41,136 nt of DNA from an uncultured Clostridia bacterium. Its GTDB lineage: Bacteria > Acidobacteriota > Aminicenantia > UBA2199. The DNA lies in the NCBI GenBank assembly GCA_964583345.1, contig CAZOWT010000003.1:1-41136 (forward strand), given 5' to 3'. Positions 2,985 to 41,072 of this stretch are shown here, in pieces (the stretch's first letter is position 1; every line of letters begins with the position of its first letter). Below the pieces are notes generated by a model. It saw nothing but the letters and a program-made list of their open reading frames with translations, had not been told where the DNA came from and searched no databases. Position numbers and translations under genes: made by a program.

Positions 2985-4108
2985 GACTGGACAGGACGCC
3001 GGAGATTATAATTTCGCTTTATCCAGTTCCGGTACTCACCGCTCACGATGCCCTGGATCCAATCTTCATGACGGAGGTACCATTGAACGGTTTCTTTTAG
3101 TCCGGAATCAAAAGACATGCCGGGTTTCCATCCCAGGTTTCTCCTGATTTTACCGGCATTGATGGCATAACGTCTGTCATGCCCCGGCCGGTCCGGGACA
3201 TGTGTGATCAGTTCCCGGTAGCTGGAGATTTTTAATTTCAGCAGTTTCAAGTGAAGGTTTTTATCGACCGGGTAGAATTTATCCATAACATCACATATCT
3301 TTTCAACTACCCTGATGTTGGTCTGCTCACAGTTTCCGCCGATGGTGTAGGTTTCCCCGGGTTTCCCCCGGGTAATGATCAGCCAGACGGCCGCACAATG
3401 ATCCCCGACGTAGAGCCAGTCCCGGCTATGTTGTCCGTCGCCATAAACCGGCAGCGGTTTACCTTTCCAGGCATTGATGATCATCAGGGGAATCAGTTTT
3501 TCCGGGAACTGAAAGGGGCCGTAATTGTTGCTGCAGTTGGATAGGGTGACCGGAATGGCATAGGTATGGTGATAAGCCCGAACCAGGTGGTCGGAAGATG
3601 CTTTCGAGGCCGAGTAGGGGCTTCTGGGGTCATAGGGGGTATTTTCGCTGAAGGTTCCGGTCTTGCCCAGGCTGCCGAATACCTCATCGGTGCTGATGTG
3701 GTGGAATAGAAAATTGGTTTTCCTGCCCCAGAATCTTCTGGCGGTTTCCAGCAGGTTGAACGTTCCCATGATATTGGTGTTGACGAAATCCGCCGGTCCG
3801 AATATGGATCTGTCCACATGGGATTCGGCGGCAAAATGGACCACGGTATCGATATGGTAGGTCTTGAAAATTTCCTCCAGGGTATTGAAATCGCCCACAT
3901 CCGCCTTTTTGAAAATGTAGCGTTTTCCCTCATGCTGTTCGACGATATCGGAGAGATTATCCGGGTTTCCGGCATAGGTCAGGTTATCGAGATTAATTAT
4001 CTTCCCCCGGAAATCGGTGTTTTGGAATACATGGCGGATAAAATTGCTGCCAATAAAACCGCATCCTCCGGTAACCAGCATGTTTTTTATTTTTCGATTT
4101 TTTATCAT
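2981..4108 (-). CDS. rfbB: dTDP-glucose 4,6-dehydratase
   Basis: 375 aa. It has the Rossmann motif [12 protein letters not shown], catalytic [10 protein letters not shown] (YxxxK) and DEVFGSL. The real start may be the Met of MLVTGG at 4081. Confidence 0.9.
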
Positions 4109-5031
4109 TTTCCTGAAACCGGTTGGGGTAGATCCGGGTCGAGAATATTCATGAGATAGCGGCCATATTCATTCCGCTTCATGGACTCGGCCAGTTTTCT
4201 CAATTGTCCGCTGTCAATCCACAGGTTCTGGTAGGCGATTTCTTCGATGCAGGCTATTTTCAGGCCCTGGCGTTCCTCTATGGTCTTGATAAAGACCGAT
4301 GCATCGATCAGGGACTGGTGGGTACCGGTATCCAGCCAGGCATAACCGCGGCCCAGAAGTTCCACCTTCAGGGTTCTGTTTTCGAGATATTGGTTGTTGA
4401 TATCGGTTATTTCCAGTTCTCCCCTGTCGGACGGTTTCAGGTTTCTGGCATATTCAATCACCCGGTTGTCATAAAAATAAAGCCCGACTACCGCCCAGTT
4501 CGATCGGGGACGGGAGGGTTTTTCCTGGATGGATATGGCCAGGTTGTTTTCGTCGAATTCAACCACCCCGTAGCGTTCCGGATCGCTGACATTGTAACCG
4601 AAAATGGTGGCTCCTTTTTTTTGTCCGGCAGCCCTTTGCATCAGGTTATTCAACCCGTGCCCGTAAAAAATGTTGTCTCCCAGAATCAGGCAGACCTGAT
4701 CATTGCCGATAAACGGTTCGCCGATGATGAATGCCTCGGCAATACCTTTCGGGCTGGATTGTTCGGCATATTCCAGGGAAATGCCCAACTGGGCTCCGTT
4801 TCCGAAAAGTTTCTTGAATGCCGGGAGGTCATCGGGCGTGGAAATAACCAGTATGTCCCGGATGCCGGCCAGCATCAGGACTGATAGCGGGTAATAAATC
4901 ATGGGCTTGTTATATACCGGGAGCAGCTGCTTGCAAACCGGTTTTGTCAGCGGATATAGCCGGGTTCCATGGCCGCCGGCCAGGATAATCCCTTTCATAT
5001 TATTGTTTCTCTCCAATTCATTTTCGCTCAC
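4105..5031 (-). CDS. rfbA: Glucose-1-phosphate thymidylyltransferase
   Basis: 308 aa with [38 protein letters not shown] and RGELEITD. The longest ORF begins with a GTG overlapping the glmS stop. The canonical N-terminus MKGIILAGG would start at 4998. Confidence 0.9.
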
Positions 5032-6854
5032 TCCACGGTAACCGATTTGGCCAGATTCCGGGGCTTATCGATATCGCATCCCTTTTCCTTGGCGATATAA
5101 TAAGCAAAGAGCTGCAGGGGGATGATGTTGAGGATGGGCTGGAGTATGGGCAGTGTTTGGGGGACAAATATCACGTCATCGGAAATTTTAACCACGGTTT
5201 CGGCTCCCTCATTGGTGATACTCAGAATTTTCCCGTTTCTGGCCCTGATTTCCTGGATGTTGTTGATCATCTTGTCGTAGGTGGCATCCCTGGGAACGAT
5301 GGCCACAGTGGGAAAATCCTCGTCAATCAGGGATATCGGACCGTGTTTCATCTCACCGGCCGGATATCCCTCGGCGTGGACATAGGATATCTCTTTAAGT
5401 TTCAGAGCCCCTTCCATGGCGGTGGGATAGTTGTAGAGCCGGCCGATATACAGAAAATTCTGGTAATGCGCATATTTTGAGGCGATTTTTTTAATTTGGT
5501 TGGCTTTTTTCAGTATGTCCTTGGCCTGGTCCGGGAGTTTTTTAAGGGCGATCAGCAGTTCGCTCCCCTCATTGTAGGAAACGGTCTGGTAGCGTCCGAT
5601 CAGTACGGCAATCAGGGTCAGAATGACCAGCTGGGAGGTATATATTTTGGTCGAGGCCACTCCGACCTCGGGGCCGGCATGGTTGTAAACTCCGGCATCG
5701 GTGATCTGGGCGATAGAGGTTCCGACAGCGTTCACAATGCCCAGAAGCAGGGCGCCTTTTCTTTTAGCTTCTTTGATGGCGGCCAGGGTATCTGCGGTTT
5801 CGCCGGACTGGGAAATGGCCAGTACGGCCACGTTTTCATTGAGTTTCAGGCGGCGGTACCTGAATTCCGATGCCAGTTCGGTCTCAACATCCAGTTCGGT
5901 CAGGGTTTCGAAGATATAGCGCCCCAGCAGCCCGGCATAATAGCTGGTGCCGCAGCTCACGATAACCAGTTTTTTTATATTTTTCAGCCGGTCCAGAACC
6001 GGTTCCAGTCCTCCCAGTTTCGATACCCCCTCATTGGTGATGATCCTCCCCCGGAAAGCGTTCTTGATGGTTTCGGGTTGTTCGAAGATTTCCTTGAGCA
6101 TGTAGTGTTCGAAACCTTTCTTATCCAGTTCGTAGTCAGCTTCCTCCAGAATCTCGATCTTTTTCTCCAGAATCTGATTCTTCATATTCTTGATGTAGTA
6201 ATGGTCGGAGTTCAACACCGCGATTTCATCGTCGCTGAGATAGACCATTTTATGGGTATAGGGGGAGATGGCATTGGAATCTGATGCGGCAAAATACTCG
6301 TTATCGCCTATGCCTATGATAATCGGGCTTCCCCGCCGGACAATGATGATTTGGTGATCGAAATCGGCGTGAATGACGGCAATGCCAAATGTTCCGACCA
6401 GCCTTTCGACCGATTTGAGCACCGCAGTTTCCAGATCGCCATCCAGGTTTTCTTCGATCAGGTGGGCCACCACTTCGGTATCGGTCTGGGATTTGAAAAC
6501 ATGCCCCTTTTTCTTCAGTTCATCTTTGAGCTCCTGGTAGTTTTCAATGATGCCGTTATGAATAAGGCTTATTTTTCCCGTGCAATCCGACTGGGGATGG
6601 GCATTGATTTCAGAGGGTTTCCCATGGGTAGCCCAGCGGGTATGGGCGATGCCGAATGTTGAATTCAGTTTTACGCCGGCGGTTTTTTGTTCCAGCTTGG
6701 ATACCTTGCCCACGGTTTTAATGGTGACCATCTTGTGGTTGTCCACGGTCGATAGCCCGGCAGAATCATAGCCCCGGTATTCCAGGCGTTTCAATCCTTC
6801 TATCAGGATCGGGGCGGCTTGTTTACGGCCGCAATAACTGATTATTCCGCACAT
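5028..6854 (-). CDS. glmS: Glutamine--fructose-6-phosphate aminotransferase (isomerising)
   Basis: 608 aa. It has the N-terminal nucleophile MCGI, the SIS motif SQSGETADT and the C-terminal KSVTVE. Confidence 0.95.
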
Positions 6855-6867
6855 GCTGACCTCTCTT

Positions 6868-8241
6868 TTAAAAATGGGTTAACTGGGACTTGCCCAGCGG
6901 GAAAACGTTGAAGCCGATATCGAATAATTGGTTGTGGTCAAGGATATTTCTGCCGTCAAATAGGAAAGCCGGTTTTTTCATGGAAGCGAATATCTTCTTA
7001 TAATCGAGTTTCGAGTAGGATTCCCACTCGGTGAGGATGGCAATGGCATGGGCATTCTCAGCTGCCCGGTAGGGATCGCTTTCGAAACCGATCCGGTCAA
7101 GCCCGGCCAAATCATGACGGGCATTATCCAGGGCCTGGGGGTCGGTGATGGCAATGATGGCCCGTTCTTCGGCCAGCTTTTTGGCCACAAAAATGGCCGG
7201 AGATTCGCGGGTATCGCCGGTATTGGCCTTGAAGGCAAAACCGAAAATGGCGATTTTCTTGTCGGCGACGGTATTAAACATCTCAGTGATTATTCTTTTG
7301 ACGAACCGGCTTTTCTGGTATTCGTTCATCCAGACCACCTTCTCCCAGTAATCGGCCACCTCATTCAATCCGTACTTGCGGGCGATATAAACCAGGTTGA
7401 GAATATCTTTTTTGAAGCAGGAACCGCCGAATCCGATGCTGGCGTTCAGGAACTTTCTGCCGATCCGGGAGTCGCTGCCAACGGCATAGGAGATTTCCCC
7501 GATGTTGGCATCGGTTTTTTCGCACAGGGCGGAGATGGAATTTATTGAAGAAATACGCTGGGCCAGAAAGGCGTTGGCCACCAGTTTCGACAGTTCAGAT
7601 GACCAGAGATTGGAGGTAATGATTTTTTTTTCGGGAACCCAGTGGGCATAGATATTGATGATTTCTTGGGCCGCCTTTTTCCCTTCAATGGTCTGGTGGA
7701 AACCGACGAGCACCCGGTCCGGCTCCAGAAGATCTTTCACGGCAGAACCCTCGGACAGGAATTCCGGATTGGAGACGACCTCGAATTTGATATTCCGCTT
7801 GTTGGATGTCAGGATTCGTTCCATGGCTTCGGCGGTTCTCACCGGCAGGGTGCTTTTTTCCACGATAATTTTGTCGTTCTGTGCGGAATGGGTTATCTGC
7901 AGGGCGGTTTTTTCCCAGTATTGCAGGTCGGAAGCCATGCCGGCTCCTTCGCCGAACGACTTGGTCGGTGTATTGACCGATACGAAGATAATATCCGCTT
8001 CGCGGATGCCCTTTTCGGTATCGGTGGAAAAAAACAGGTTTTTCCCCCGAATTTTTTCAACGATCTCTTTCAGGCCGGGTTCGAATATCGGCAGGGTATC
8101 GGAATTCCACTGCCGGATTCTTTCCGGGTTGATGTCAACCACGTCCACCCGGTATTCCGGGCATTTAAGCGCCATGACCGCCATGGTAGGTCCGCCCACA
8201 TAGCCGGCGCCGATACACAGTATCCTTTTTTTATATGCCAT
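6868..8241 (-). CDS. ugd: UDP-glucose 6-dehydrogenase
   Basis: 457 aa with ILCIGAGYVGGPT (NAD binding), the catalytic-Cys motif GFGGSCFKKD and NPEFLSEG. Confidence 0.9.
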   Translation of the reverse strand: MAYKKRILCIGAGYVGGPTMAVMALKCPEYRVDVVDINPERIRQWNSDTLPIFEPGLKEIVEKIRGKNLFFSTDTEKGIREADIIFVSVNTPTKSFGEGAGMASDLQYWEKTALQITHSAQNDKIIVEKSTLPVRTAEAMERILTSNKRNIKFEVVSNPEFLSEGSAVKDLLEPDRVLVGFHQTIEGKKAAQEIINIYAHWVPEKKIITSNLWSSELSKLVANAFLAQRISSINSISALCEKTDANIGEISYAVGSDSRIGRKFLNASIGFGGSCFKKDILNLVYIARKYGLNEVADYWEKVVWMNEYQKSRFVKRIITEMFNTVADKKIAIFGFAFKANTGDTRESPAIFVAKKLAEERAIIAITDPQALDNARHDLAGLDRIGFESDPYRAAENAHAIAILTEWESYSKLDYKKIFASMKKPAFLFDGRNILDHNQLFDIGFNVFPLGKSQLTHF

Positions 8242-30717: not shown

Positions 30718-32244
30718 ATGAAGTTGAAAAACGGCGTGTTTTTTTTTCTGGTTTTTTTTTTCTTTCTTTCCCTGATGTCGGAAGAGAAGGTGCGTGAATA
30801 CCTGAAAACCGGGGATTGGTATCCCTCCGGGAAATCCGAGCTATCTGATTTAATGAATCAACTTTTTTCCCGGGCGGAAAAGGTCGATATCCCCGGCAAT
30901 ATCGTGGGAATTGTTTCCCCTCATGCCGGTTTTGCCTATTCCGGCCTCTGCGCGGCCATGGCCTACCGGCAGCTGGAAGGAAATCCTCAAATCAGCAGGG
31001 TAATCATCCTGGGAACTTCCCACCATGCCGGTTTTTACGGGGCCTGTGTCTCCGATTTCACCCATCTGGCCACTCCGCTGGGAAAACTGGAGGTGGACAG
31101 GCAGGTGGTAGACAAACTGGCAGCAGAGAGACTCTTCCGCCTGGACAACCGGGTGATGCTCTATGAGCATTCCATCGAAAACCAGCTGCCCTTTATCCAG
31201 ACGGTTTTTAAAAACCGGGATATCCGGGTGGTTCCCATCCTGTTCGGTCAGCTGGACCATAAAGATTATCCGGTCATGGCCAGGATCATCGGTAACTTTA
31301 TCGATTCCGCGACCCTGGTGGTGGCCAGCAGTGATCTCGACCATTACGGACAAAACTTCGGTTATACCCCGTTCAGCCGCAATATCAAAGCGAATCTCAC
31401 TCGGCTGGATACCGGGATGATCGAGAATATTTCCCGCCTGGATATTGATGGGTATTTCCGGTACAAGGAAAAGACGGGTATCACCATGTGCGGTTTTGTG
31501 CCGGTAGGCGTGCTGCTGTATTTATACCCGGCCCGGGGCCATGGGGCCAGGCTAACGGATTACAGGAAATCCGGCGACCGAAACCAGGATTATTCTCTCA
31601 GTGTGAGCTATGCGTCTCTGGTCATATGGCAAAAGAAACCGGGTCACGGCGGCGGCGGCAACCGGGCGGGAGAAATCGGCCGGGAATCCGGCCTCTCCGC
31701 AACCGAAAAAAAAGATCTCCTGTCCATGGCCCGGGATACGCTCCGCCTTTTTTTCCAGCAGGCGGATGCCCGGGCGGTAATAGAAAAAAAATATCGAATA
31801 TCGGACAATTTGAAAAAGGAACTCGGGGTTTTTGTGACCCTGAAAAAGAACCAACAGCTCCGGGGATGTATCGGTTCGCTTATCGGCCGGAAACCGCTCT
31901 ACCTGGAGGTCATGGATGAGGCCATCAACGCCGCGGTGCGGGATCCCCGGTTTATCCCGGTCAAACAAGAGGAACTGCCCGGACTGAAAATTGAAATATC
32001 AGTGATGACCCCGCTGCAAAAAATTACGGATTATAAACGGATTCGCCTGGGAATTGACGGTGTGATTATTAAAAGCGGCTATTCCCAGGCGGTGTATCTG
32101 CCCCAAGTTGCCACTGAAACCGGCTGGAATCTGGATGAGTTCCTGAGCCATCTGTGCGAGAAAGCCGGCCTGGCATCCCGGGCATATCGGTCCCCGGATA
32201 CCGAATTCTATGTGTTTCAGGCCCAGGTATTCGGGGAAGACTGA
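30718..32244 (+). CDS. Fusion of AmmeMemoRadiSam system protein B (MEMO1 family) and protein A (AMMECR1 domain), with an N-terminal signal or anchor
   Basis: 508 aa. The hydrophobic N-terminus is MKLKNGVFFFLVFFFFLSLMS. The Memo part carries IVSPHAGFAYSG...GTSHH...SSDLDHYG. A Gly-rich linker KKPGHGGGGNRAG follows. The AMMECR1 part carries GVFVTLKKNQQLRGCIGS...DPRF. Confidence 0.85.
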   Translation: MKLKNGVFFFLVFFFFLSLMSEEKVREYLKTGDWYPSGKSELSDLMNQLFSRAEKVDIPGNIVGIVSPHAGFAYSGLCAAMAYRQLEGNPQISRVIILGTSHHAGFYGACVSDFTHLATPLGKLEVDRQVVDKLAAERLFRLDNRVMLYEHSIENQLPFIQTVFKNRDIRVVPILFGQLDHKDYPVMARIIGNFIDSATLVVASSDLDHYGQNFGYTPFSRNIKANLTRLDTGMIENISRLDIDGYFRYKEKTGITMCGFVPVGVLLYLYPARGHGARLTDYRKSGDRNQDYSLSVSYASLVIWQKKPGHGGGGNRAGEIGRESGLSATEKKDLLSMARDTLRLFFQQADARAVIEKKYRISDNLKKELGVFVTLKKNQQLRGCIGSLIGRKPLYLEVMDEAINAAVRDPRFIPVKQEELPGLKIEISVMTPLQKITDYKRIRLGIDGVIIKSGYSQAVYLPQVATETGWNLDEFLSHLCEKAGLASRAYRSPDTEFYVFQAQVFGED

Positions 32245-32256
32245 TATGTTTAGGCC

Positions 32257-33243
32257 ATGACCATCGATAGAAGGAAATTCGGAAAAACACTCCTGGCCTG
32301 CGCGGCCGGTACGGGAACCGGCCTGTTTTTCCCCACTGTGATGCCCGGGGCCGATTCAGGAAAGAGCCAGGTTTTGATTGCCCGTTCCCAGGCGTTGATC
32401 CGGGACAATCACGGCCACCTGCGCCGGGAAAAGGTTTTTGCGGTCGTCAACCGCTTGCTGATGCGTCTGACCGGCAATCATGACCCGGCAGCGGCCTGGA
32501 AATCGCTGTTCTCTCCCGGAGAAAAGGTGGGTGTCAAACTCAGCTGCCTGCCCGGTAAGCGCCTATCCTCCAGCCCGGGCTTGGTGATGGCCATTGCCGA
32601 CGGCCTGAAATCCGCCGGGATCCGGGAGCAGGATATTTTTATCTGGGATCGGACCGACCGGGAACTGATCGAGGCCGGATTTGATATTTCCCACCGGGGG
32701 ATTAATGTGTTAGGGACCGATAATATTCGCGGGGGAGGATACTCGGACCGGGTGGAAATATCGGGGAGTGTGGGCACCTGTTTCAGCCGGATTCTGGAAG
32801 CCATGGATGCGCTGATCAGCGTTCCGGTGCTCAAGGATCATGATATTGCCGGGGTTTCCATCGGCATGAAAAACTTTTTTGGGGCCATTCACAATCCCAA
32901 TAAATTCCACCAGAATGCCTGCGATCCCTATGTGGCGGATCTCTGTCGCCACCCGTTCATCAAAAACAGACTGAGGCTGATAGTCTGCGATGCGTCCCGG
33001 GTTCAGGTTCATAACGGGCCGGCTTTTTTCCCCGGATATGCCTGGGAGTATGGCGGCATACTGGTCAGCGCCGATCCGGTAGCCCTGGATTATACCGGCT
33101 GGCAGATTATCGAGAAGAGAAGAAAGGAACTGGGGCTGAAATCACTGCGGGAATCCGGCAGGGAACCCGCCTACATATTTACGGCTGGAAAACTTGGTTT
33201 GGGCCGGGCCAACGAAAAAGCCATACGGGTGGTTGAAATATGA
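32257..33243 (+). CDS. DUF362-domain protein with a twin-arginine signal
   Basis: 328 aa. MTIDRRKFGKTLLACAAGTGTG has a Tat-type RRxFxK motif plus an h-region. The remainder (VGVKLSC...VLKDHDIAGVSIGMKNFFG) resembles DUF362, called from recalled family features. Confidence 0.65.
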   Translation: MTIDRRKFGKTLLACAAGTGTGLFFPTVMPGADSGKSQVLIARSQALIRDNHGHLRREKVFAVVNRLLMRLTGNHDPAAAWKSLFSPGEKVGVKLSCLPGKRLSSSPGLVMAIADGLKSAGIREQDIFIWDRTDRELIEAGFDISHRGINVLGTDNIRGGGYSDRVEISGSVGTCFSRILEAMDALISVPVLKDHDIAGVSIGMKNFFGAIHNPNKFHQNACDPYVADLCRHPFIKNRLRLIVCDASRVQVHNGPAFFPGYAWEYGGILVSADPVALDYTGWQIIEKRRKELGLKSLRESGREPAYIFTAGKLGLGRANEKAIRVVEI

Positions 33244-34394
33244 AAAAATCCGTTGAACAAAACCAGATTTCCCGCAGGAAGTTTGTCAAGCAGGGTGTTC
33301 TGGCCGGATTCTGCTGTCCGCTGCTGCTGGCAAATTCCCGGTTGTTCGCCTTTGATTCCGGCAATATCGATACCGGCATCCGGCCTGAAAATGCCCGGGA
33401 AGCCCGTTATTATGAGAAAATCGCGGATAAAAAGATTATTTGCCGGCTCTGCCCGCATGAATGCCGGATTGCCGACCGGGAGCGGGGCGCCTGCGGGGTG
33501 CGGGAAAATCGGGGCGGCACCTATACCACCCTGGTTTACGGCAATCCCTGTTCGGTCCACGTGGACCCGATTGAGAAAAAACCCATGTTTCACTATTACC
33601 CGGCTACCCAGGCTTTTTCCATTGCCACTGCCGGCTGCAATTTTGTCTGCCGGTTCTGTCAAAACTGGGAAATTTCCCAGAAACGGCCGGAACAGATCAA
33701 ATCCATTAACCTTTTCCCGGCCGAGGTGATCCGGTCGGCAAAAAACAATGCCTGCCGCACCGTGGCCCACACCTACACCGAACCGGTGATTTTTTTTGAA
33801 TACATGCTGGATTGCTCCATCCAGGGGAAAAAGATGGGAATTCCGAATGTGATGATCTCCAATGGCTATATCCAGGAAAAACCCATGCGGGAACTCTGCC
33901 GGTATCTGGGGGCGGTCAAGGTCGATTTGAAGGCGTTTACGGAAAAATTTTACCAGGAGCAGTGCAGCGGAACCCTGAAGCCGGTGCTCGATACCCTGCA
34001 GGTCCTTAAGGATGAGGGCATATGGTTTGAAATCGTGGTGTTGATTATTCCCACGCTCAACGACAGTAGGAAGGAGATCGATGACATGACCCGCTGGATT
34101 GTCAAAGAATTGGGGCCGGACGTTCCCGTGCATTTTTCCCGCTATTACCCGACTTTCATGCTCAAGAATATCCCTCCCACTCCCCCGAGCCTGCTGGAGA
34201 TGGCCCATAAAATTGCCCGCGACAATGGCGTGCACTATGCCTATGTCGGCAACATCCTCTCGGATGCGGCCAACACCTATTGCCACAGCTGCGGTAAATT
34301 GCTCATCGAGCGTTTGGGTTTTTCCACCGATATCGTGGGGATGAAGGGCAATACCTGCAAACATTGCGGCCAGAAAATTCCCGGGGTTTTTTAG
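33240..34394 (+). CDS. AmmeMemoRadiSam system radical SAM enzyme (PflA-like) with an N-terminal twin-arginine signal-like extension
   Basis: 384 aa. The N-terminus ISRRKFVKQGVLAGFCCPLLLANSRLFA is a near-consensus Tat signal. It is followed by CRLCPHEC...GACGVREN and the radical SAM motif CNFVCRFCQNW. It overlaps the DUF362 gene by 4 nt. Confidence 0.85.
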   Translation: MKKSVEQNQISRRKFVKQGVLAGFCCPLLLANSRLFAFDSGNIDTGIRPENAREARYYEKIADKKIICRLCPHECRIADRERGACGVRENRGGTYTTLVYGNPCSVHVDPIEKKPMFHYYPATQAFSIATAGCNFVCRFCQNWEISQKRPEQIKSINLFPAEVIRSAKNNACRTVAHTYTEPVIFFEYMLDCSIQGKKMGIPNVMISNGYIQEKPMRELCRYLGAVKVDLKAFTEKFYQEQCSGTLKPVLDTLQVLKDEGIWFEIVVLIIPTLNDSRKEIDDMTRWIVKELGPDVPVHFSRYYPTFMLKNIPPTPPSLLEMAHKIARDNGVHYAYVGNILSDAANTYCHSCGKLLIERLGFSTDIVGMKGNTCKHCGQKIPGVF

Positions 34395-34915
34395 AAAAAT
34401 CTGGTTAGTTGTTTCCGAACGAATGCCCGAATGGCACGGTAATATCGCCGGCCGTTGATATAAATCAGATAAACCTGAAAAAAGGTTTTCGTCCGAATCG
34501 GCTGATGGAAACGATCCGGCAAAAAAAACGCTTGTCCGTCCCGTTCGACCCGGGTGACCACCCCGATGATGTTTTTATCGGTTATGACGGCATCGACGAC
34601 TTGCTGCCGGTCTGCCCTGATGACAAATGAATTCTTTTTGATTTTGGCCACCCGGTGCAGTACCAGCCTGTTGTTTGCCGGATGCCGGAATGCCACCACT
34701 TCCCCCGGAGAGGGCATTATTCCCTTCAGGGGAGATATCGTAATAAAGTCATTGTTCCGAATGGCGGGAGTCATGCTGCTGCCGGTGGCCCGGAAGCGGA
34801 AAGATGCGCCTTTGTCATGAACTGCCCGCATGAGTTCCATCAGTATCCTGCCGGATATGGACAGGGACTTTTCTTTGCTTTCGGGATTATGCATTCCAGG
34901 TTTGCTTCCGGTCAC
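34391..34915 (-). CDS. S24/S26-family (signal peptidase I / LexA-like) serine peptidase; candidate leader peptidase of the RiPP-like operon
   Basis: 174 aa with the Ser motif ATGSSMTPAI, GEVVAF, and the Lys motif VLHRVAKIK. There is no N-terminal TM helix. It overlaps the upstream radical SAM gene by 4 nt. Confidence 0.7.
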   Translation of the reverse strand: MTGSKPGMHNPESKEKSLSISGRILMELMRAVHDKGASFRFRATGSSMTPAIRNNDFITISPLKGIMPSPGEVVAFRHPANNRLVLHRVAKIKKNSFVIRADRQQVVDAVITDKNIIGVVTRVERDGQAFFLPDRFHQPIRTKTFFQVYLIYINGRRYYRAIRAFVRKQLTRFF

Positions 34916-36105
34916 AGGTATGGTTTTACCTTTAAAGATATTCCAGTTTTTTTTACTCTTTCCTTCCAGTTTTTAACCGTCCAGGCATTTTCCCCGGTTT
35001 CCAGCAGTCCAAGTAGGCGCGCCTGGGCATGGGCCACCCGGCAGAGGTATTCCACCGGGGTATCCAGGGTGCCGTGTTCTGACCAGGATTTTGCCGGGCA
35101 CTGTTCGCAGAGGTTCTTTAAAAAACAGCGGGCGCAGCGTTTCAGATAATCCGGATTTTCAGCCGTGATATTTTTTATCCGGCATCGGTTTTCTTGCAGG
35201 GCTGTTTTCAAATCCTGATGTTTTAAATCAATGAGCAGGTCGGGATGTCGAAGCAGCAGGCAGGGTTGAAGCATACCGTAGGCGTCGATACTGACCGTAT
35301 GACCGGCCCCGCAATCCAGCAATTTTTTCCCGGAAGGACCCAGGAATCGAAGGCAGAATTGCCTCATATCACGGTCAAACAGCTCCCGGTCTCGAGCCAT
35401 GAATGCAACAGCTTTTTCCGGTTTCGGCCGGAGGCGTTCGATGGCCCGGTTTTTTCGGTTTGAGTCATGCCGGGCCCGCAGGTCATACAGATAGGAATAA
35501 GAGGGGGACCGGTCCATTCCGGGCAGGGAGCCGGCCCAGGATTCGAATGCTTTGATTTCGCCCTGGTTTTGCGGCAGAAGGGCACCCTTGACCACAAAAG
35601 GTATGTGGTGTTTTAACAATAGATCAATTCCCTTTCTGAATTGTTCGAATGAACCGGGAATACGTGTAACTGCCTCGACCGATTTTTTCCGCATGCCGTA
35701 AACCGTGACTTCGATCTTTTCGAGCGGAGGGATAGCTAAAAAAAGCTTTGCCAGCGATTTGGTGATCAGGGTGGCATTGGTAAACAACCGGACCCTCATT
35801 CCCAGTCGCCGGGCGAACCGGTACAATTCGGGAAAATCCGCTCTCAGCAGGGGCTCACCCCCGGTAAAACGGACCGTTAGGGCGCCCAAAGAGGCCGCCT
35901 GTTTCAGTATGGCTTTCCATTCGTCGGCGGTCAGTTCCCGGGAACGGGCTTCCGGATCATCCGGCGGACGGTTGATGTAACAATGGATGCAATTTTGGTT
36001 GCAGCGCTCGGTTAGTTCGATATCCAGGGAAGGCAGTTGCGGGTGGCCTTTTTTCCACAGAGAACGGTATCCGGGATCCCTTTTTGAGTATCCATCAGCG
36101 GCCAT
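34912..36105 (-). CDS. Radical SAM/SPASM-domain peptide maturase (paralogue 3 of 3)
   Basis: 397 aa with CNQNCIHC (CxxxCxxC), GGEPLLR, and the SPASM-type motifs CGAGHTVSIDAYGMLQPC and CARCFLKNLCEQCPA. Confidence 0.85.
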   Translation of the reverse strand: MAADGYSKRDPGYRSLWKKGHPQLPSLDIELTERCNQNCIHCYINRPPDDPEARSRELTADEWKAILKQAASLGALTVRFTGGEPLLRADFPELYRFARRLGMRVRLFTNATLITKSLAKLFLAIPPLEKIEVTVYGMRKKSVEAVTRIPGSFEQFRKGIDLLLKHHIPFVVKGALLPQNQGEIKAFESWAGSLPGMDRSPSYSYLYDLRARHDSNRKNRAIERLRPKPEKAVAFMARDRELFDRDMRQFCLRFLGPSGKKLLDCGAGHTVSIDAYGMLQPCLLLRHPDLLIDLKHQDLKTALQENRCRIKNITAENPDYLKRCARCFLKNLCEQCPAKSWSEHGTLDTPVEYLCRVAHAQARLLGLLETGENAWTVKNWKERVKKTGISLKVKPYL

Positions 36106-36406
36106 GAACCCGGGTTACCATTTTTCGCTTTACAAATTCGTTAATCAGACCCATCACATCTTTCTGAATTTCGGATAATGGTGAATCATATTCGGTTTCC
36201 AAAAACTGAATGATTTCCTCCACGGTTTTTTTTCCATCCAATTGTCCCCAGATGGCTTTACCGGTTTCGTTCAGGGTGAACAGATCTTCTTCCATATCCC
36301 CGATTCCGCTGACCAGAGGGATAAGGATCAATTCACCTTCGATCTCTCGGAACACAATTTCTTCTGAGGGTTCGAAAATATCTTTTATGTGAATGGTTGG
36401 TTTCAT
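36095..36406 (-). CDS. PqqD-family peptide chaperone (RiPP recognition element)
   Basis: 103 aa. VFREIEGELILIPL...LFTLNETGKAIWGQLDGKKTVEEIIQFLETEYD is the typical PqqD/RRE pattern. A GGAG RBS lies 7 nt upstream. Confidence 0.8.
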   Translation of the reverse strand: MKPTIHIKDIFEPSEEIVFREIEGELILIPLVSGIGDMEEDLFTLNETGKAIWGQLDGKKTVEEIIQFLETEYDSPLSEIQKDVMGLINEFVKRKMVTRVHGR

Positions 36407-36436: not shown

Positions 36437-36679
36437 TCAACTGGTTGTCCACTGGCGGCAAATCTGATAACTGTTGTTGATAAAACAGGTGCCGAAATAC
36501 CCATCCGGGCCCTGGCCCACCTGGCCGGTTTTGCAGAAAAGTAGCACCTGTTCCTCGGGCGTTTTATTGGCCAGGCTGATTAACAGCGGTTTCTCCCACC
36601 TTTTCTTTTTTATCATGCTATTTTTTATCATATTACAAAAAGGGTATTTTGTCAATAAATCCTGAAATATTGCTTTCAT
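36437..36679 (-). CDS. Candidate RiPP precursor peptide P1 (longest ORF 80 aa; the paralogue-supported start at ATG 36616 gives 59 aa)
   Basis: MIKKKRWEKPLLISLANKTPEEQVLLFCKTGQVGQGPDGYFGTCFINNSYQICRQWTTS aligns residue-for-residue with P2 and more loosely with P3. It lies directly upstream of the PqqD gene. Confidence 0.6.
   Translation of the reverse strand: MKAIFQDLLTKYPFCNMIKNSMIKKKRWEKPLLISLANKTPEEQVLLFCKTGQVGQGPDGYFGTCFINNSYQICRQWTTS
36627..36655 (-). promoter_or_regulatory. Internal sigma-70-type promoter TTGACA-N17-TATGAT in front of P1
   Basis: The minus strand reads atttaTTGACAaaataccctttttgtaaTATGATaaaaaatagcATGata. The -35 (36655-36650) is perfect, the spacer is 17 nt, and the -10 (36632-36627) matches 5 of 6. 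The ATG at 36616 is 10 nt after the -10. Confidence 0.5.
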
Positions 36680-36717
36680 TCATCTTCTTTTCCTTTTCGG
36701 GTCCTGAAAAATCCGGA

Positions 36718-36894
36718 TTAACTCTGGGTCCATTGTTTGCAGGTCGTTCCCTGGGGAATCCGGCAGGTTCCGAAGAATCCCTCGGGTCCCTGTCCGGGTA
36801 TACCGGTCTTGCAAAATAGCAAAACATGTTCCTCGGGTTTTTTGATTTCCAGGATGATTAATCCGGGTTTTGTCCACTTTTTTTGCTTTTTCAT
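36718..36894 (-). CDS. Candidate RiPP precursor peptide P2 (58 aa), not in the ORF track
   Basis: Manual reverse translation gives MKKQKKWTKPGLIILEIKKPEEHVLLFCKTGIPGQGPEGFFGTCRIPQGTTCKQWTQS with a TAA stop at 36718-36720. The ATG overlaps the TGA of the upstream radical SAM gene (ATGA at 36891-36894). Confidence 0.6.
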   Translation of the reverse strand: MKKQKKWTKPGLIILEIKKPEEHVLLFCKTGIPGQGPEGFFGTCRIPQGTTCKQWTQS

Positions 36895-38018
36895 GGTTTC
36901 GGTCCGGTTTTATCCAGGTTTTTTGCCCGGGCATGGGCCACCCGGCAAAAATAGTCCACTTTGCGGTCCAGATTCCCGGTTTCCAGGTGGGCATGGGCCG
37001 GGCACCACAGGCACAGGTTGATGATAGGACAGATTTTGCATTCAAGTGTCATGGGGTTTTCTTCGGCTCTTGTTTCGACTACCCTGGGTGTGAACCGGTT
37101 CCAGGCTTCTTCCAGATTGCCATTTCGCCAGTCATACCGGAAATCCGGATGGTTGAGCGAGGAGCAGAGGCGAAACAATCCGTCACTGCCCATGACGAAA
37201 CTTCCGTTGCCCATGCCGCAAAGAAAGAGACGGTTATCGGTTTTTTCCTCTTTGTCGGTCCGGATATATGAATGAATATTATTCTCCAGTACCTTAAATC
37301 GCTCGGGATCCGAAGTTTCCAGTTTTACGATCTCTTCCGGTGTCAGCCGCTCTGCTTGAATGTCCCGGTTCCGGTCAGGATCGCGGTCGTATCTCAGGTG
37401 CAGGAAGGGATCAAAACGGTAGTAATCCTTTGTTTTCTGGCGGCAGAAGCCGGAGATTTTCGCAAACTCGTGGAAATTGCTTCTAAGCATCATGGCCTTC
37501 AAACGGATTTTAACCTCTCCGTTGGTCAGCAACTGTAGGCCCCGCATGAATGTTTTATATGAACCCGGTGTGCGGGTTACGGCTTCATAGGTTTCTTCAG
37601 TAACCCCGTAAACCGATACCTCAATGTCTCGGGGAGGGTAGCGCCTGAACAATTTGATATGTTCTCCGGTGATCAGGTTGGCGTTGGTAAATACGGATAC
37701 CAGCAGGCCTTTCTTCTTGAGCAACAGGTAAATATCGGGAAAGTCCCGGCGCAGCAGCGGTTCGCCTCCGGTCAGCAGGCACCAGCAGGCTCCCAGGGAA
37801 ACGGCCTCATCGGCCAGTCGGTTTATCTCGGAAATGGTCAGCTCTTTTTCCCGGGCTGTGTTGTCTCCGGCCGGCAGGTTGATGTAGCAATGCCGGCAGT
37901 TGTTGTTGCAGCGGGCGGTCAATTCAAGCTCGAAGGAAATCAGGGATCTACGGGATTTGATTTTGTCCCACAGGGCAAACTCGGGAAGGGCAATGGAGCT
38001 GATATATGATTTCTTCAT
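36891..38018 (-). CDS. Radical SAM/SPASM-domain peptide maturase (paralogue 2 of 3)
   Basis: 375 aa with CNNNCRHC, GGEPLLR, and the SPASM-type motifs CGMGNGSFVMGSDGLFRLC and CKICPIINLCLWCPA. The C-terminal YFCRVAHARA parallels YLCRVAHAQA in the 397-aa paralogue. Confidence 0.85.
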   Translation of the reverse strand: MKKSYISSIALPEFALWDKIKSRRSLISFELELTARCNNNCRHCYINLPAGDNTAREKELTISEINRLADEAVSLGACWCLLTGGEPLLRRDFPDIYLLLKKKGLLVSVFTNANLITGEHIKLFRRYPPRDIEVSVYGVTEETYEAVTRTPGSYKTFMRGLQLLTNGEVKIRLKAMMLRSNFHEFAKISGFCRQKTKDYYRFDPFLHLRYDRDPDRNRDIQAERLTPEEIVKLETSDPERFKVLENNIHSYIRTDKEEKTDNRLFLCGMGNGSFVMGSDGLFRLCSSLNHPDFRYDWRNGNLEEAWNRFTPRVVETRAEENPMTLECKICPIINLCLWCPAHAHLETGNLDRKVDYFCRVAHARAKNLDKTGPKP

Positions 38019-38794
38019 GGTTTCCTAAGCAATGCGCCGCCTTTCATCTGGCCATTCGTCTTTTCAATATGCACAATGTCCATCCCGCTTCTTTCAAGCT
38101 CTGATTTAAGGGCGTCTACCGAAACAAAGGTATGGATGAATTCCCCGTTCCTCCAGAGTATGTCACCGGTTTCATATTTCAGGTTTCCAAGTGTCAAGCC
38201 GGCAAACAACTTTTTGAAAATTTCCTTCCAGGCCGAAATATTTTTCTCGGTTTTCCACTGAAATTGCAGGAGGGCATAACCACCGGGCCGGAGCATGCTT
38301 TTCACCCTTTTCAGCATTTCAACCCGCCGTTTGCGGGTGGGGATGGCGGAATACAAATCCGGTGAAAACCAGATGATATCGAAGGAATCGGGGGGGAATT
38401 CGATTCGGGATAATTCCTGGACACTGACTTCAATATTCAGCCCCTGATCGATTAAGTTATGGCGGGCACTCTCTGCCATGGCCTCAACAAAATCAACGCC
38501 GTGAACCTCAAAATCCAGGCGGGCCAGGGGAAGCGCTTCCCGGCCCCCGCCAACGCCGATTATCAATATTCTTCCTCTTTTGAAAGGAATTTTTAGTATC
38601 AGTTTTTCCTCGATTTCATTGAAACCGGAAAACAAGAGATCTCTTCGGGTGAAGGATGCAATGCTGTCTGGTTTGGCATAGGTTTGGCGGCTGAATTTCA
38701 CCAGGTCATCCGGCCTCATCAGTACCACTGCCAGGGACTGGATGAACTTTCCCAGTGAAATGAACCGTTTTGCACATCGGATTCTAAGATTCAT
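38015..38794 (-). CDS. Class I SAM-dependent methyltransferase
   Basis: 259 aa with the motif I sequence ILIIGVGGGREALPLA, then FEVHGVDF and LRPGGYALL. It overlaps both neighbours by 4 nt. Confidence 0.8.
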   Translation of the reverse strand: MNLRIRCAKRFISLGKFIQSLAVVLMRPDDLVKFSRQTYAKPDSIASFTRRDLLFSGFNEIEEKLILKIPFKRGRILIIGVGGGREALPLARLDFEVHGVDFVEAMAESARHNLIDQGLNIEVSVQELSRIEFPPDSFDIIWFSPDLYSAIPTRKRRVEMLKRVKSMLRPGGYALLQFQWKTEKNISAWKEIFKKLFAGLTLGNLKYETGDILWRNGEFIHTFVSVDALKSELERSGMDIVHIEKTNGQMKGGALLRKP

Positions 38795-40779
38795 AGATGT
38801 CCTGCTGTCAATTTATTTAAAAGATCCTTAACCTCATTGCCCTTATTAAAATATAAAAAATAACAGGGGACTTCAATAACGATTTTTTCCAGCAGATCCA
38901 GGCTTTTCTGCCACCAATCCCCGGTGCCGAGGGGTTTGATTAAAAAAGACAGCAGTTTGCCGATGATGATCTGTTTATCTTGAATTTGTTCCAGCCGGTT
39001 ATCCGGGGATTTTTCCAGAAAAAGCATGGCTTTCAGAGGTGCAGATGAAGGTGAAACCTCAGGAATGTCCCCGTGGCTCCAGGTCCCATGAATTTTAAAT
39101 CCCTCCGGCCAGTTTCTGACAATATTCCGGTCATCACACAGAATTTCCGTTTCATCCTGAAGAATCCGGGTCAGGGTGGATTTCCCGGCCCCCGAATGAC
39201 CCATAAGAAGAAAGCCTGAACCCTGGTGAATGACACCGCTGGAGTGGAAATAACAACCTTCATGGTATGAAAGAACCTGAGCGATCAACATCTGGTCGGA
39301 AGGCATCAGGGATAACGATGTCACGTCTCCTTTGATAAAGTATTTTTTCTTGGTATCATCATTATAAAGCCGGTTGAAGCGGTAATCCCGGCTGAAGATC
39401 CCGACCTGGGGATAGGAGGTTCTCCGGCCTCCTGAACCGATACAGAAATAAACCCAGTTGTTTCGATGTTTGAAAATTTTCCAGGGTGGCTGGTGAAACA
39501 CCGGTTGTCCCATTTTATTCATTTGAAGGGGTGGATCGGAAAAAAAATGCTGGATGATGGTGTTGTTGTCTCCCGGACCGTCCACCTCAAACGCCTTGAA
39601 TTTGGGATGAAAGGTATTTTTCCGAATAGGCAGTTCCGATTCCAATTGAATGGTAATATTGGCAATTTCATAAAATCGCCGGTGATTCTTTTCCCAGCTT
39701 TTTTTTAATTTCTGTTTTTCCCGGGTGATATCGCAAAGATATTCGATTTTTTGATGATAATTACTGTGCTCCAGGTAGCGATATGCCGGGCAACTGGAAC
39801 AGCTATCGGCAATATCGCAGGAAAAGCAATCCCCGGTTTGAAGCGGCTGGAGGTTGAACTGGTTTTTCAGGGAAGGAATAAATGTATTCCAGATGGTCTC
39901 AAAGGAATTTTTTTTCAGACTTTTTCTGGTAGAGGAGTCCTTGGCAAAAGCACAGAAACTCAAATCACCATAGGGATCGACATGAAATTCCTGCCGGGTC
40001 CGAATGCAGGAAGCAAACACTCCGGTATCGGACATGTTTCCTTCCACATCAATCGATTCTTCACGATTTGCAGGGAGGTGTGAAAAGGGAGGACTAAAAT
40101 CAAGCTCAGCCGCCTGGGCAGGAAGGAGCCGCTGGCCTATAATTTCACGGTTCTTTTTCAAGTTATTTTCGGCAGACAGGTACAGCCAGGAGGCTCCGTA
40201 GCGCCAGGAGGGTGTCAGCGATTCTGCCAGCCGGACCATTTCTGAAAGGTGAATAATATTATCTTTCATGGGCACAATCTGCATTGTGAAATTGGTTCCG
40301 GCTTCTTTCAGGTAGGCGATTCCCTGCATCAGCAATTGAAAGGATCCAGGAGTCCGGGTGATATGGTCATGGGTTTTTTCATCGGCACCGTACAGGGCAA
40401 CCAGCTTGATTCCCTCTCTCTTCAAAAGCCGGGCAATCGAAGGGGTTATCAGGGTGCCATTGGTATTCAGTGTGTAACGATTGGTTTTTCTGGTTATATA
40501 ATCGAAAATTTCAGGAAAATCAGCTCTCAATAGCGGTTCACCTCCGGAAATGTACCACTGGCGGCAGCCCATTCTTCTGGCTTCATCCACCAGTTTTTTA
40601 ATTTCATCAATCTGGAGTTCAGCCTTTATTTTTTTCGAAGCCGGTGGTATTCTCACCCAGCAGTGGTGGCAGTTCAGGTTGCAGCGGTAGGTGAGGTCCA
40701 GCGATCCCTTTCGCGGGATGCGGAGAGAACTGCAGGGCCTGATAGTTGTAAGATAATCATTCATTTCAGCATTGATCAT
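38791..40779 (-). CDS. Radical SAM/SPASM-domain maturase (paralogue 1 of 3) fused to a C-terminal HPr-kinase-like P-loop domain
   Basis: 662 aa. The N-terminal half carries CNLNCHHC, GGEPLLR, CIRTRQEFHVDPYGDLSFC and CFSCDIADSCSSCPA. The C-terminal ~300 aa contain FHSSGVIHQGSGFLLMGHSGAGKSTLTRILQDETEILCDDRNIV, which mirrors the HprK catalytic core (H-G-V...G-x-G-V-L-I-x-G-x-S-G-x-G-K-S...D-D). Confidence 0.8.
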   Translation of the reverse strand: MINAEMNDYLTTIRPCSSLRIPRKGSLDLTYRCNLNCHHCWVRIPPASKKIKAELQIDEIKKLVDEARRMGCRQWYISGGEPLLRADFPEIFDYITRKTNRYTLNTNGTLITPSIARLLKREGIKLVALYGADEKTHDHITRTPGSFQLLMQGIAYLKEAGTNFTMQIVPMKDNIIHLSEMVRLAESLTPSWRYGASWLYLSAENNLKKNREIIGQRLLPAQAAELDFSPPFSHLPANREESIDVEGNMSDTGVFASCIRTRQEFHVDPYGDLSFCAFAKDSSTRKSLKKNSFETIWNTFIPSLKNQFNLQPLQTGDCFSCDIADSCSSCPAYRYLEHSNYHQKIEYLCDITREKQKLKKSWEKNHRRFYEIANITIQLESELPIRKNTFHPKFKAFEVDGPGDNNTIIQHFFSDPPLQMNKMGQPVFHQPPWKIFKHRNNWVYFCIGSGGRRTSYPQVGIFSRDYRFNRLYNDDTKKKYFIKGDVTSLSLMPSDQMLIAQVLSYHEGCYFHSSGVIHQGSGFLLMGHSGAGKSTLTRILQDETEILCDDRNIVRNWPEGFKIHGTWSHGDIPEVSPSSAPLKAMLFLEKSPDNRLEQIQDKQIIIGKLLSFLIKPLGTGDWWQKSLDLLEKIVIEVPCYFLYFNKGNEVKDLLNKLTAGHL

Positions 40780-40841: not shown

Positions 40842-41072
40842 TCATGAAGTATTATTCTGCGCCTGACAGGCGGCGTGGCATGCGCTCGACTGCCTACATT
40901 GATTGAAGGCCGAGTTCGGACCTGTAAAATTTTGGGTTTTACAATTCAGCGTCAGCACCTCGTCGGGATTGCTCCGGCATAATATTACCAGCTGGGGCCT
41001 TTCCCAGAACTTTTTCTTGTCATATTTTTTTGCTGTATCCATTTTTTTCATTTCTTTTTCAGTTTCCTTCAT
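40842..41072 (-). CDS. Candidate RiPP precursor peptide P3 (76 aa from the first ATG; the start is uncertain, with alternative Met codons at residues 8 and 11)
   Basis: MKETEKEMKKMDTAKKYDKKKFWERPQLVILCRSNPDEVLTLNCKTQNFTGPNSAFNQCRQSSACHAACQAQNNTS shares W-x-[KR]-P-x-L, P-[DE]-E-x-L, CKT, GP, spaced Cys and the C-terminal TS with P1 and P2. It is the first gene of the operon. Confidence 0.55.
   Translation of the reverse strand: MKETEKEMKKMDTAKKYDKKKFWERPQLVILCRSNPDEVLTLNCKTQNFTGPNSAFNQCRQSSACHAACQAQNNTS

Follow-up and report, generated by a model that had tools for sequence, protein, structure and literature searches.

Three peptides in an uncultured Aminicenantia contig as probable precursors of a widespread RiPP cluster with SPASM maturases and an HPr-kinase-like domain

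We analysed a 41,136-nt stretch of DNA from an uncultured bacterium of the GTDB lineage Aminicenantia (contig CAZOWT010000003.1, assembly GCA_964583345.1; the whole stretch is hereafter called the window), focusing on three small open reading frames (ORFs), P1, P2 and P3, and on the genes around them. P1, P2 and P3 are paralogous minus-strand ORFs whose similarity is far above chance. They belong to a conserved family of peptides that is linked with genes for a discrete recognition element of ribosomally synthesised peptides with post-translational modifications (RiPPs), for three radical S-adenosylmethionine (rSAM) enzymes with SPASM domains, for a domain with the fold of HPr kinase (HprK) and for a peptidase resembling signal peptidase I (SpI). 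Taken together, P1–P3 are probably the precursor (A) peptides of a widespread, unnamed RiPP cluster, matured by the RiPP recognition element (RRE), the SPASM enzymes, the kinase and the peptidase. In the order of the minus strand, the cluster in the window consists of the following genes:

40842-41072, minus: P3, precursor peptide of 76 aa counted from the first ATG
38791-40779, minus: rSAM/SPASM-ScmC fusion protein of 662 aa, with a maturase at residues ~28-350 and an HPr-kinase-like P-loop domain at residues ~367-662
38015-38794, minus: class I S-adenosylmethionine-dependent methyltransferase of 259 aa (Pfam Methyltransf_25, E 6e-16)
36891-38018, minus: rSAM/SPASM maturase of 375 aa, with CX3CX2C at residue 37 and a 7-Cys SPASM pattern
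36718-36894, minus: P2, precursor peptide of 58 aa
36437-36616, minus: P1, precursor peptide of 59 aa, starting with MIKKKRW and ending with TTS
36095-36406, minus: discrete PqqD-family RRE of 103 aa (Pfam PqqD, E 2.5e-15)
34912-36105, minus: rSAM/SPASM maturase of 397 aa, with CX3CX2C and a 7-Cys SPASM pattern
34391-34915, minus: SpI-like serine protease of 174 aa (Ser47/His87/Asp102), the predicted leader peptidase

A large peptide family with a conserved leader and a variable core

The initial annotation of positions 36,437 to 36,894, a segment that P3 lies outside, had aligned P1–P3 by hand; this alignment was correct, and the ORFs exist on the minus strand as described there. BLASTP gave 61% identity between P1 and P2 (E 1e-23) and 45% identity across 42 residues between P1 and P3 (E 3e-10), and P1 matched the hidden Markov model (HMM) of the family described below with E 2.4e-21. 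Chance ORFs were ruled out by the BLASTP comparisons between the peptides together with the size of the family. An HMM made from the three peptides found no further member besides P1–P3 among 962 six-frame ORFs of the window.

The sequence of P1 has the form MIKKKRWEKPLL...CKTG...C...CRQWTTS, with the Cys framework C-x16-C-x8-C-x5-S. In-frame alternative starts of P1 are the ATG codons at 36631 and 36679, the latter being the furthest upstream. A promoter-like sequence, TTGACA-17-TATGAT (36655-36627, minus strand), which is near-consensus for a sigma-70-like promoter (11/12), ends 11 nt ahead of the P1 ATG at 36616; if this promoter is used, the P1 transcript would be nearly leaderless and both upstream ATGs would be excluded. 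In the sequence ATGA, the start codon of P2 shares bases with the stop of the rSAM gene upstream of it (36891), suggesting translational coupling. For P3, the ATGs at 41051 and 41042 are alternative starts. Its core has the four Cys residues typical of the family and its end reads C-x6-S, so that P1 (CRQWTTS) and P2 (CKQWTQS) obey the rule C-x5-[S/T] while P3 (CQAQNNTS) is one residue longer. P3 with a single core substitution was present on 11 JGI contigs. One public contig (L007; JGI 3300062771 Ga0599253_0000148) was near-identical to the window, and its peptide differences were confined to the variable cores (I32L in P2, R60M in P3).

An exhaustive profile search over 1.84 billion representative proteins, at a threshold of E<=1e-3, placed the peptides in a family of at least 1509 clusters at 50% identity. 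A word-indexed search with the alignment of the three peptides had suggested a tiny family of 4 clusters, its matches being the window's own peptides and one relative, P0004, with Y in place of W (MKKIKKEYKRPELIVL); this estimate was overturned by the exhaustive profile search. Among the best 150 of the 1509 profile matches, the length was nearly always 54-76 aa. All sampled database members of the family were annotated 'hypothetical protein', and none of 128 aligned family peptides matched any family in Pfam or NCBIfam; below threshold, 12 members resembled the lasso precursor family rhodolasso (best E 0.015) and five the PadeA family (best E 0.0062). Three database entries had unusual layouts: in P0186 (203 aa), a Lys/Glu-rich linker connects a PqqD domain with a family peptide that possibly begins at an internal GTG, and P0128 (180 aa) and P0133 (90 aa) each carry two leader-core units in tandem. 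These three may be real fusions or read-through gene calls.

Conservation was counted over 152-235 family members, and an information profile was calculated from 195 motif-anchored sequences. The profile revealed one continuous conserved block, K-K-x-W-x-K-P-x-L-[IV]-[VI]-L-x-R-x-x-P-E-E-x-V-L-x-x-C-K, in which the specified positions from the tryptophan onwards were occupied by W (98%), P (100%), L (97%), L (95%), R (81%), P (78%), E (82%), E (98%), V (82%), L (96%), C (100%) and K (97%). The W-x-x-P-x-L motif is the part of the family with the highest conservation, and the distance from the motif Leu to the C-K cysteine was exactly 15 residues in 148 of 152 peptides. Right after C-K, conservation fell abruptly to less than ~1 bit per position, and the variable core that follows is rich in Gly, Ser, Thr, Ala and Asn. 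In its pattern of conservation, the precursor family thus has the architecture of a conserved leader followed by a variable core.

Within this variable core, the Cys residues and the C-terminus kept a recognisable geometry. Counting the C-K cysteine, 162 of 235 peptides had four Cys residues and 52 of 235, P1 and P2 among them, had three. The gap between the first and second Cys was 14-16 residues in 166/235 peptides, and the last Cys pair was CxxC or CxxxC in 166/235. The terminal residue was Ser in 131 and Thr in 19 of 152 peptides, and it stood exactly six residues past the last Cys (C-x5-[S/T]-COOH) in 199 of 235. In an independent set of peptide ORFs taken from genome loci, 103 of 111 ended in Ser or Thr, the exceptions being mostly fragments or contig ends.

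Measured against these counts, the initial annotation was right about the leader motif W-x-x-P-x-L and about P-E-E-x-V-L (E 98%, L 96%). Of its invariant CKT, the C-K pair stands, whereas the T is present in 27% of the family; its terminal [TQ]-S is borne out at the last residue (Ser or Thr in 150/152) and variable at the penultimate one. The GP that it called conserved reaches ~30% at its column, and the aromatic pair is weak, aromatic residues ahead of the second Cys reaching ~15%. Its border between leader and core at '...VLL' and 'CKT' was a guess, and conservation continues through C-K. The central idea, an RRE-binding leader of lasso type followed by a Cys-containing core, is borne out within the limits of sequence evidence.

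Enzymes of the cluster and their association with the peptides

The P-loop domain of the 662-aa protein contains the motifs GHSGAGKST...CDDR. The Pfam family PF27840 ('ScmC') has a precomputed match on the identical 662-aa protein of L007 and on all 120 homologs listed. With NCBIfam, the domain gave sub-threshold matches to ScmC (E 5e-8), HprK-related kinase B (E 1.2e-6) and hpr-ser. An AlphaFold2 model of the domain had a mean predicted local distance difference test score (pLDDT) of 92 and a predicted TM-score (pTM) of 0.88. A Foldseek search of this model against the PDB (E<=0.001) returned 45 matches, which were exclusively ATP-dependent phosphoenolpyruvate (PEP) carboxykinases and HPr kinase/phosphorylases (probability 0.96-1.0, E 2e-7 to 1e-3); PEP carboxykinases and HPr kinases have one P-loop fold in common. 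A comparison of the ScmC profile with PDB sequences gave marginal P-loop matches (HPr kinases, E 0.045-0.29). Alignment of 36 homologs showed an invariant G-H-S-x-x-G-K-x-T, followed ~17 residues on by D-D-R and then by H-G-T-W-S-H-G-D. Judged by residue pattern, these motifs are the Walker A and double-Asp layout of HPr kinases, and the double Asp matches the metal site that was mutated in PsmK (PMC6993621). The fold and the Walker A and double-Asp motifs agree with HprK, and the sequence matches to HprK families are sub-threshold.

All three rSAM enzymes, including the maturase part of the fusion protein, carry CX3CX2C and a seven-cysteine SPASM-type pattern, in agreement with the SPASM character assigned to them initially, and they are mutually paralogous (E 1e-35 to 1e-65). 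Their best scores against curated maturase families (AlbA, StsB, PapB and the SCIFF maturase) were 45-84 bits, against cut-offs of 340-850. The PqqD-like gene lies immediately downstream of P1, as the initial annotation had noted, with a 30-nt gap. Its 103-aa product gave sub-threshold matches to the PqqD, lasso PqqD chaperone and ScmD families, and the nearest solved structures were PqqD, the lasso protein TbiB1, 9x8z_B and 9x90_B (2026 entries) and TfuB1, all of them marginal in sequence. The view of P1–P3 as RiPP precursors with a conserved leader is supported; WxxPxL of this leader is the most conserved element of the family, and a discrete PqqD-family RRE is adjacent.

The gene for the 174-aa protease belongs to the operon of the PqqD gene and follows it ~1.2 kb downstream, with one rSAM gene in between. 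The protein matched Pfam Peptidase_S24 (E 2.6e-7) and, below the cut-off, NCBIfam sigpep_I_arch (E 7.5e-10). Its boxes G-x-S-M-x-P, H-R and D are invariant across 50 homologs and constitute the signature of the archaeal or endoplasmic-reticulum type of signal peptidase I; the nearest solved structures were signal peptidase I and SEC11C. The methyltransferase showed a weak match to the daptide RiPP methyltransferase family and is probably an accessory tailoring enzyme, judging from its sequence and from its distribution among related loci (see below). The HPr-kinase-like domain, the SpI-like leader peptidase and the C-x5-[S/T]-COOH end were absent from the initial annotation; together, these three features provide the link to phosphorylated RiPPs such as paeninodin and the linear polyphosphorylated peptides (LPPs).

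To assess the association between peptides and enzymes, we started from the enzymes. At least 666 homologs of the ScmC-like domain were found, with 44-57% identity among the matches listed, every one of which carries PF27840. In a scan of one genome per GTDB species, 265 genomes encoded a relative of this domain, and 79 loci were kept, retrieved via the kinase domain alone without reference to the peptides. These loci came from Omnitrophota, Planctomycetota, Desulfobacterota, Aminicenantes, Dehalococcoidia, Chlorobiaceae, Geobacter, Poribacteria, Victivallales and methanogenic archaea. At least one family peptide was found in 63 of the 79 loci, a PqqD homolog likewise in 63, the peptidase in 55, and each of the three rSAM paralogs in 61-73; the methyltransferase was found in just 12. 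Nearly all peptide ORFs (107/111) shared the strand of the kinase domain, the median distance to it being 1.5 kb, and in 60 of the 79 loci the kinase domain was fused to an rSAM enzyme. A nucleotidyltransferase resembling NTP_transf_5 was encoded in 35/79 loci (35 of L016-L094). Of the 16 loci without a peptide, about nine were short contigs and seven looked complete.

Genes of the NTP_transf_5 type were also seen beside other related clusters, including L013:4600-5760 and L015:7045-7875, often with glycosyltransferase or polysaccharide genes, and such neighbours parallel LppN and PsmN of phosphorylated RiPPs. A subgroup of seven loci additionally encoded an FAD_binding_3 protein and a DUF5838 protein. 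One locus of an uncultured Dehalococcoidia metagenome-assembled genome (L017:10971-18606, CAYVQT010000020.1) had 11 ORFs for family peptides, whose leaders are closely similar and whose cores diverge; this arrangement is a combinatorial library, like other multi-precursor RiPP loci. Loci with the methyltransferase (L024, L036, L038, L081, L093 and others) were enriched in P3-like tails of the form C-x2-3-C-[QH]-[AS] (4/12 vs 1/51, Fisher p 0.004). The methyltransferase may thus be specific for P3-type cores; this tail pattern was chosen after inspection of the data and serves as a lead only.

A close and minimal relative (L001:681-2689, also L002-L006; Logan runs SRR26074164 and others) comprised a stand-alone ScmC-like kinase, one precursor with YxxPxL, a PqqD RRE and an SpI-like peptidase. 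Its kinase was 57%, its RRE 58% and its peptidase 42% identical to the window proteins, and it shared the same flanking genes (EamA, AmmeMemoRadiSam). In the window, the AmmeMemoRadiSam trio occupies 30718-34394 on the plus strand and consists of a Memo/AMMECR1 fusion, a DUF362 protein and an rSAM protein matching TIGR04337 (E 7e-112). Inclusion of this trio in the cluster is unsupported, as the trio is known to form a system of its own and is encoded on the opposite strand; it stands beside the cluster in the window and L007 and in L001 (the 79 loci were not checked for it), and we treated its position there as conserved synteny. A group of sugar-nucleotide genes at 2981-8241 on the minus strand encodes an NAD-dependent dehydratase/epimerase, a nucleotidyl transferase, a GlmS-like amidotransferase and a UDP-glucose/GDP-mannose dehydrogenase; no evidence connects this group with the cluster, from which it is 26 kb away. 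The remaining window holds ordinary chromosomal genes, namely sugar-nucleotide and pilus genes and genes for FtsY, riboflavin, TyrRS, 2-oxoacid:ferredoxin oxidoreductase, a GGDEF protein and IspH.

Comparison with known systems

Among characterised systems, LPPs and paeninodin-type lasso peptides come nearest to the window cluster. LPPs are linear polyphosphorylated peptides of Bacillota, described for LppA/K/B/S/N/D of Paenibacillus alginolyticus (Nat Commun 2026, PMC13381572). Their clusters combine an RRE with an HprK-like kinase, an SpI-like peptidase and a nucleoside triphosphate (NTP) transferase (PMC13381572). The window cluster has the LPP-type core of RRE, putative HprK-like kinase, SpI-like peptidase and [Y/W]xxPxL leader, with an archaeal-type SpI-like peptidase co-localised with a discrete RRE, and in L001, the minimal relative, kinase, precursor, RRE and peptidase make up the entire cluster. 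A nucleotidyltransferase is present in many of the related loci (35/79), and polysaccharide genes often adjoin (L013, L015). In contrast to LPP clusters, the window adds three SPASM maturases, one of them fused to the kinase, and a Cys-rich core with a fixed framework. The LPP leader reads YxxPxVLxHQxIxFET, whereas that of the window family reads WxKPxLIVLxRxxPEExVLxxCK and has no conserved Ser/Thr near its end, the conserved hydroxyl residue being C-terminal instead of core Ser3. The window cluster also lacks an MsbA-like exporter and an LppN-type NTP transferase, its proteins are not detectably orthologous by curated models, and its related loci are mostly from Desulfobacterota, Omnitrophota, Planctomycetota, Aminicenantes and methanogens rather than Bacillota.

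Paeninodin- and pseudomycoidin-type systems share with the window a WxxPxL leader, a discrete RRE and an HprK-like kinase (in the window, a putative one) paired with a precursor that ends in Ser, as well as a nucleotidyltransferase as an optional further tailoring enzyme. In these systems, the C-terminal Ser of the lasso precursor is phosphorylated on its side chain by an HprK-like kinase (PadeK, PsmK), after which the nucleotidyltransferase adds hexose (PMC6993621). The window differs in having neither the lasso cyclase nor the B2 cysteine peptidase, and hence no lariat knot, with SPASM enzymes and an SpI-like protease instead. The term 'lasso-like' used in the initial annotation is thus apt for the leader motif and does not extend to the cluster.

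The SynChlorMet (SCM) cassette (NCBIfam TIGR04249, 04248, 04250, 04251) likewise combines an ScmC-type protein, a PqqD homolog and PqqE-like rSAM/SPASM enzymes, and it occurs in similar anaerobes, including Chlorobiaceae and methanogens. The window family differs by a third rSAM enzyme, a signal-peptidase-like protease and an identifiable precursor family; to our knowledge, and going by the TIGRFAMs description, no precursor of the SCM cassette has been identified. Assignment to the SCM cassette proper was rejected, because the window proteins scored far below the cut-offs for ScmC (32.6 bits vs 125), ScmD (27.8 vs 100), ScmE (91.0 vs 400) and ScmF (92.7 vs 400), and the related loci L021, L057 and L082 were likewise under the SCM cut-offs. 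With sactipeptide and ranthipeptide systems (AlbA, StsB, PapB), the window shares an RRE-dependent type of rSAM/SPASM maturase, a Cys-containing core (3-4 Cys here) and a conserved leader. It differs in that the RRE is a separate protein and that three paralogous maturases are accompanied by a kinase and a dedicated SpI-like peptidase.

Proposed maturation, alternative readings and significance

We propose that the segment KKxWxKPxLIVLxRxxPEExVLxxCK acts as the leader, and that its WxxPxL motif would dock as a beta-strand into the discrete PqqD-type RRE. The motif [Y/W]xxPx[L/V/I/F/A] is bound by discrete lasso-type RREs, and WxxPxL of paeninodin-type lasso leaders has been seen in a crystal structure (PMC13381572); by this analogy, binding of WxxPxL by the RRE is well supported. 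The RRE would then hand the peptide to the three SPASM maturases and to the peptidase. The maturases are predicted to act on the Gly/Ser-rich core at C-K-x~15-C-...-C-x2-3-C-x5-[S/T], the likeliest products being Cys-derived thioether cross-links; Cys cross-linking by these enzymes is plausible, judging from the enzyme class alone. The HPr-kinase-like 'ScmC' domain would phosphorylate a hydroxyl residue, for which the C-terminal Ser/Thr is the only conserved candidate, and we infer phosphorylation of this residue from the fold, the motifs and the characterised kinases PadeK, PsmK and LppK. In combination, the frequent fusion of maturase and kinase and the fixed C-x5-[S/T] suggest joint handling of the last Cys and the terminal Ser/Thr. 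Where an NTP_transf_5-like enzyme is present (35/79 loci), it may add further decoration, and in the window the methyltransferase may serve as an accessory enzyme.

The SpI-like Ser/His/Asp protease would remove the leader in an RRE-dependent manner, as proposed from LppS; cleavage by the SpI-like peptidase of LPP clusters requires the RRE (PMC13381572). Two cut sites can be considered, one ~16 residues past W (after PEE) and one beside C-K. The geometry of LppA, with Y at -16 and the cut after F-E-T, points to a cut after P-E-E and a core starting from x-V-L-x-x-C-K, whereas the drop in conservation after C-K points to a boundary between leader and core at C-K instead.

Several observations weigh against this proposal. 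The ScmC-like domain reached 32.6 bits against the ScmC cut-off of 125 and 27.9 bits against the HprK_rel_B cut-off of 200, and its Foldseek TM-scores were modest (0.21-0.55). The LPP phosphosite is core Ser3 and not the C-terminus, and Thr replaces the terminal Ser in ~12% of the peptides, while LppK rejects Thr (PMC13381572). Among the cluster proteins of the window, the Pfam and NCBIfam matches included no ABC exporter, and the window contains no homolog of the NTP_transf_5 nucleotidyltransferase. In seven cassettes that look complete (L021, L041, L048, L054, L057, L082 and L090), no family peptide was detectable within the 10-kb flanks, so that the precursor of these may lie elsewhere or come from a different family. 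The L001 cluster has no rSAM/SPASM gene, yet its peptide keeps the framework C-K...C...C-x5-S; the framework may therefore not depend on SPASM enzymes, or these may act in trans. For docking of leader and RRE, an AlphaFold2 single-sequence model of P0186 was uninformative (pLDDT 36).

It is conceivable, though unlikely, that the product is cross-linked by the SPASM enzymes only, as in the model of the initial annotation and in the manner of a sactipeptide or ranthipeptide, with the ScmC domain serving as a scaffold or nucleotide-binding regulator and the terminal Ser/Thr as a recognition or acceptor residue. No enzymes of the cluster family are more constant than the three SPASM maturases (61-73 of 79 loci), the Cys residues of the Cys-rich core are spaced in a fixed way, the rSAM enzymes resemble StsB, AlbA and PapB below threshold, and a constant C-x5-[S/T] would suit a thioether that joins the last Cys and the terminal residue. 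However, the Walker A, double-Asp and further His/Asp motifs of the ScmC domain are invariant and sit on an HprK/PEP carboxykinase fold, which argues for catalysis. Moreover, the minimal L001 cluster has the kinase without a SPASM enzyme, and the nucleotidyltransferase of 35/79 loci is of a kind typical of phospho-peptide decoration.

The fixed distance between the last Cys and the terminal residue, kept in 199/235 peptides despite variable residues between, could also reflect a ring of the lanthionine type. Here, the terminal Ser/Thr would be phosphorylated and eliminated to dehydroalanine or dehydrobutyrine, the Cys six residues upstream would add to give a 7-residue ring, and the SPASM enzymes would make other links. 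Class III and IV lanthipeptide synthetases work in this order, with a kinase followed by a lyase; Ser and Thr both occur at the terminus, as in lanthipeptides, fusion of the kinase with a maturase is the usual arrangement, and L001 has Cys residues and kinase without SPASM enzymes. We regard such a ring as improbable, since it is derived purely from the spacing, Pfam and NCBIfam scans found no homolog of a lyase or LanC-like cyclase among the cluster proteins, and characterised HprK-like RiPP kinases leave a stable (poly)phosphate.

A cofactor precursor comparable to PqqA in pyrroloquinoline quinone (PQQ) synthesis or to MftA in mycofactocin synthesis, with a small redox cofactor cut from the conserved C-terminal end, is very hard to reconcile with the peptides themselves. 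Their cores are hypervariable and loci often hold several divergent precursors, up to 11, a pattern characteristic of natural products that diversify and untypical of a cofactor; in addition, all scores for cofactor families were far under the cut-offs. The combination of PqqD, rSAM/SPASM enzymes and a peptidase does resemble the PQQ and mycofactocin systems, with the mycofactocin maturase and PqqE among the better NCBIfam matches, and the broad spread in anaerobes including methanogens, the cluster without an exporter and the invariant C-terminal geometry would also fit a cofactor. A true lasso peptide cluster, suggested by the WxxPxL leader with its adjacent PqqD-type RRE and by the few sub-threshold matches to rhodolasso and PadeA, was ruled out for practical purposes, because scans of the cluster proteins and of 20 further window ORFs found neither an Asn-synthetase-like cyclase nor a transglutaminase-type B2 peptidase, and the leader peptidase is signal-peptidase-like instead.

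Returning to maturation by RRE, SPASM enzymes, kinase and peptidase, we found no description in the literature of a kinase, RRE and SpI-like peptidase combined with SPASM maturases and a Cys framework, and the mapping papers on rSAM-RiPPs that we consulted make no mention of such cassettes. We tentatively suggest that the cluster may represent a new RiPP class, consisting of Cys-cross-linked peptides with a phosphorylated, and in many relatives further decorated, C-terminal Ser/Thr at C-x5 from the last Cys, made by an LPP-type core together with three SPASM maturases. If this is true, the class would be present in at least 265 species-level genomes from more than ten phyla, including methanogenic archaea, and it would provide the first testable substrate model for ScmC-type cassettes. 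The first characterisation of SpI-like leader peptidases and HprK-like kinases outside lasso clusters dates from 2026 and concerned Bacillota only; with the present peptide family, the known range of this machinery would come to include archaea and uncultured anaerobes, in which it would be joined to radical SAM chemistry. Precise and inexpensive hypotheses for heterologous expression and mass spectrometry follow from the WxxPxL motif, the C-K pair, the Cys framework and the C-x5-Ser/Thr end, and an HMM of the precursors would improve genome mining for these clusters. Three anonymous small ORFs thus offer an entry to a large RiPP family that curated resources have overlooked.

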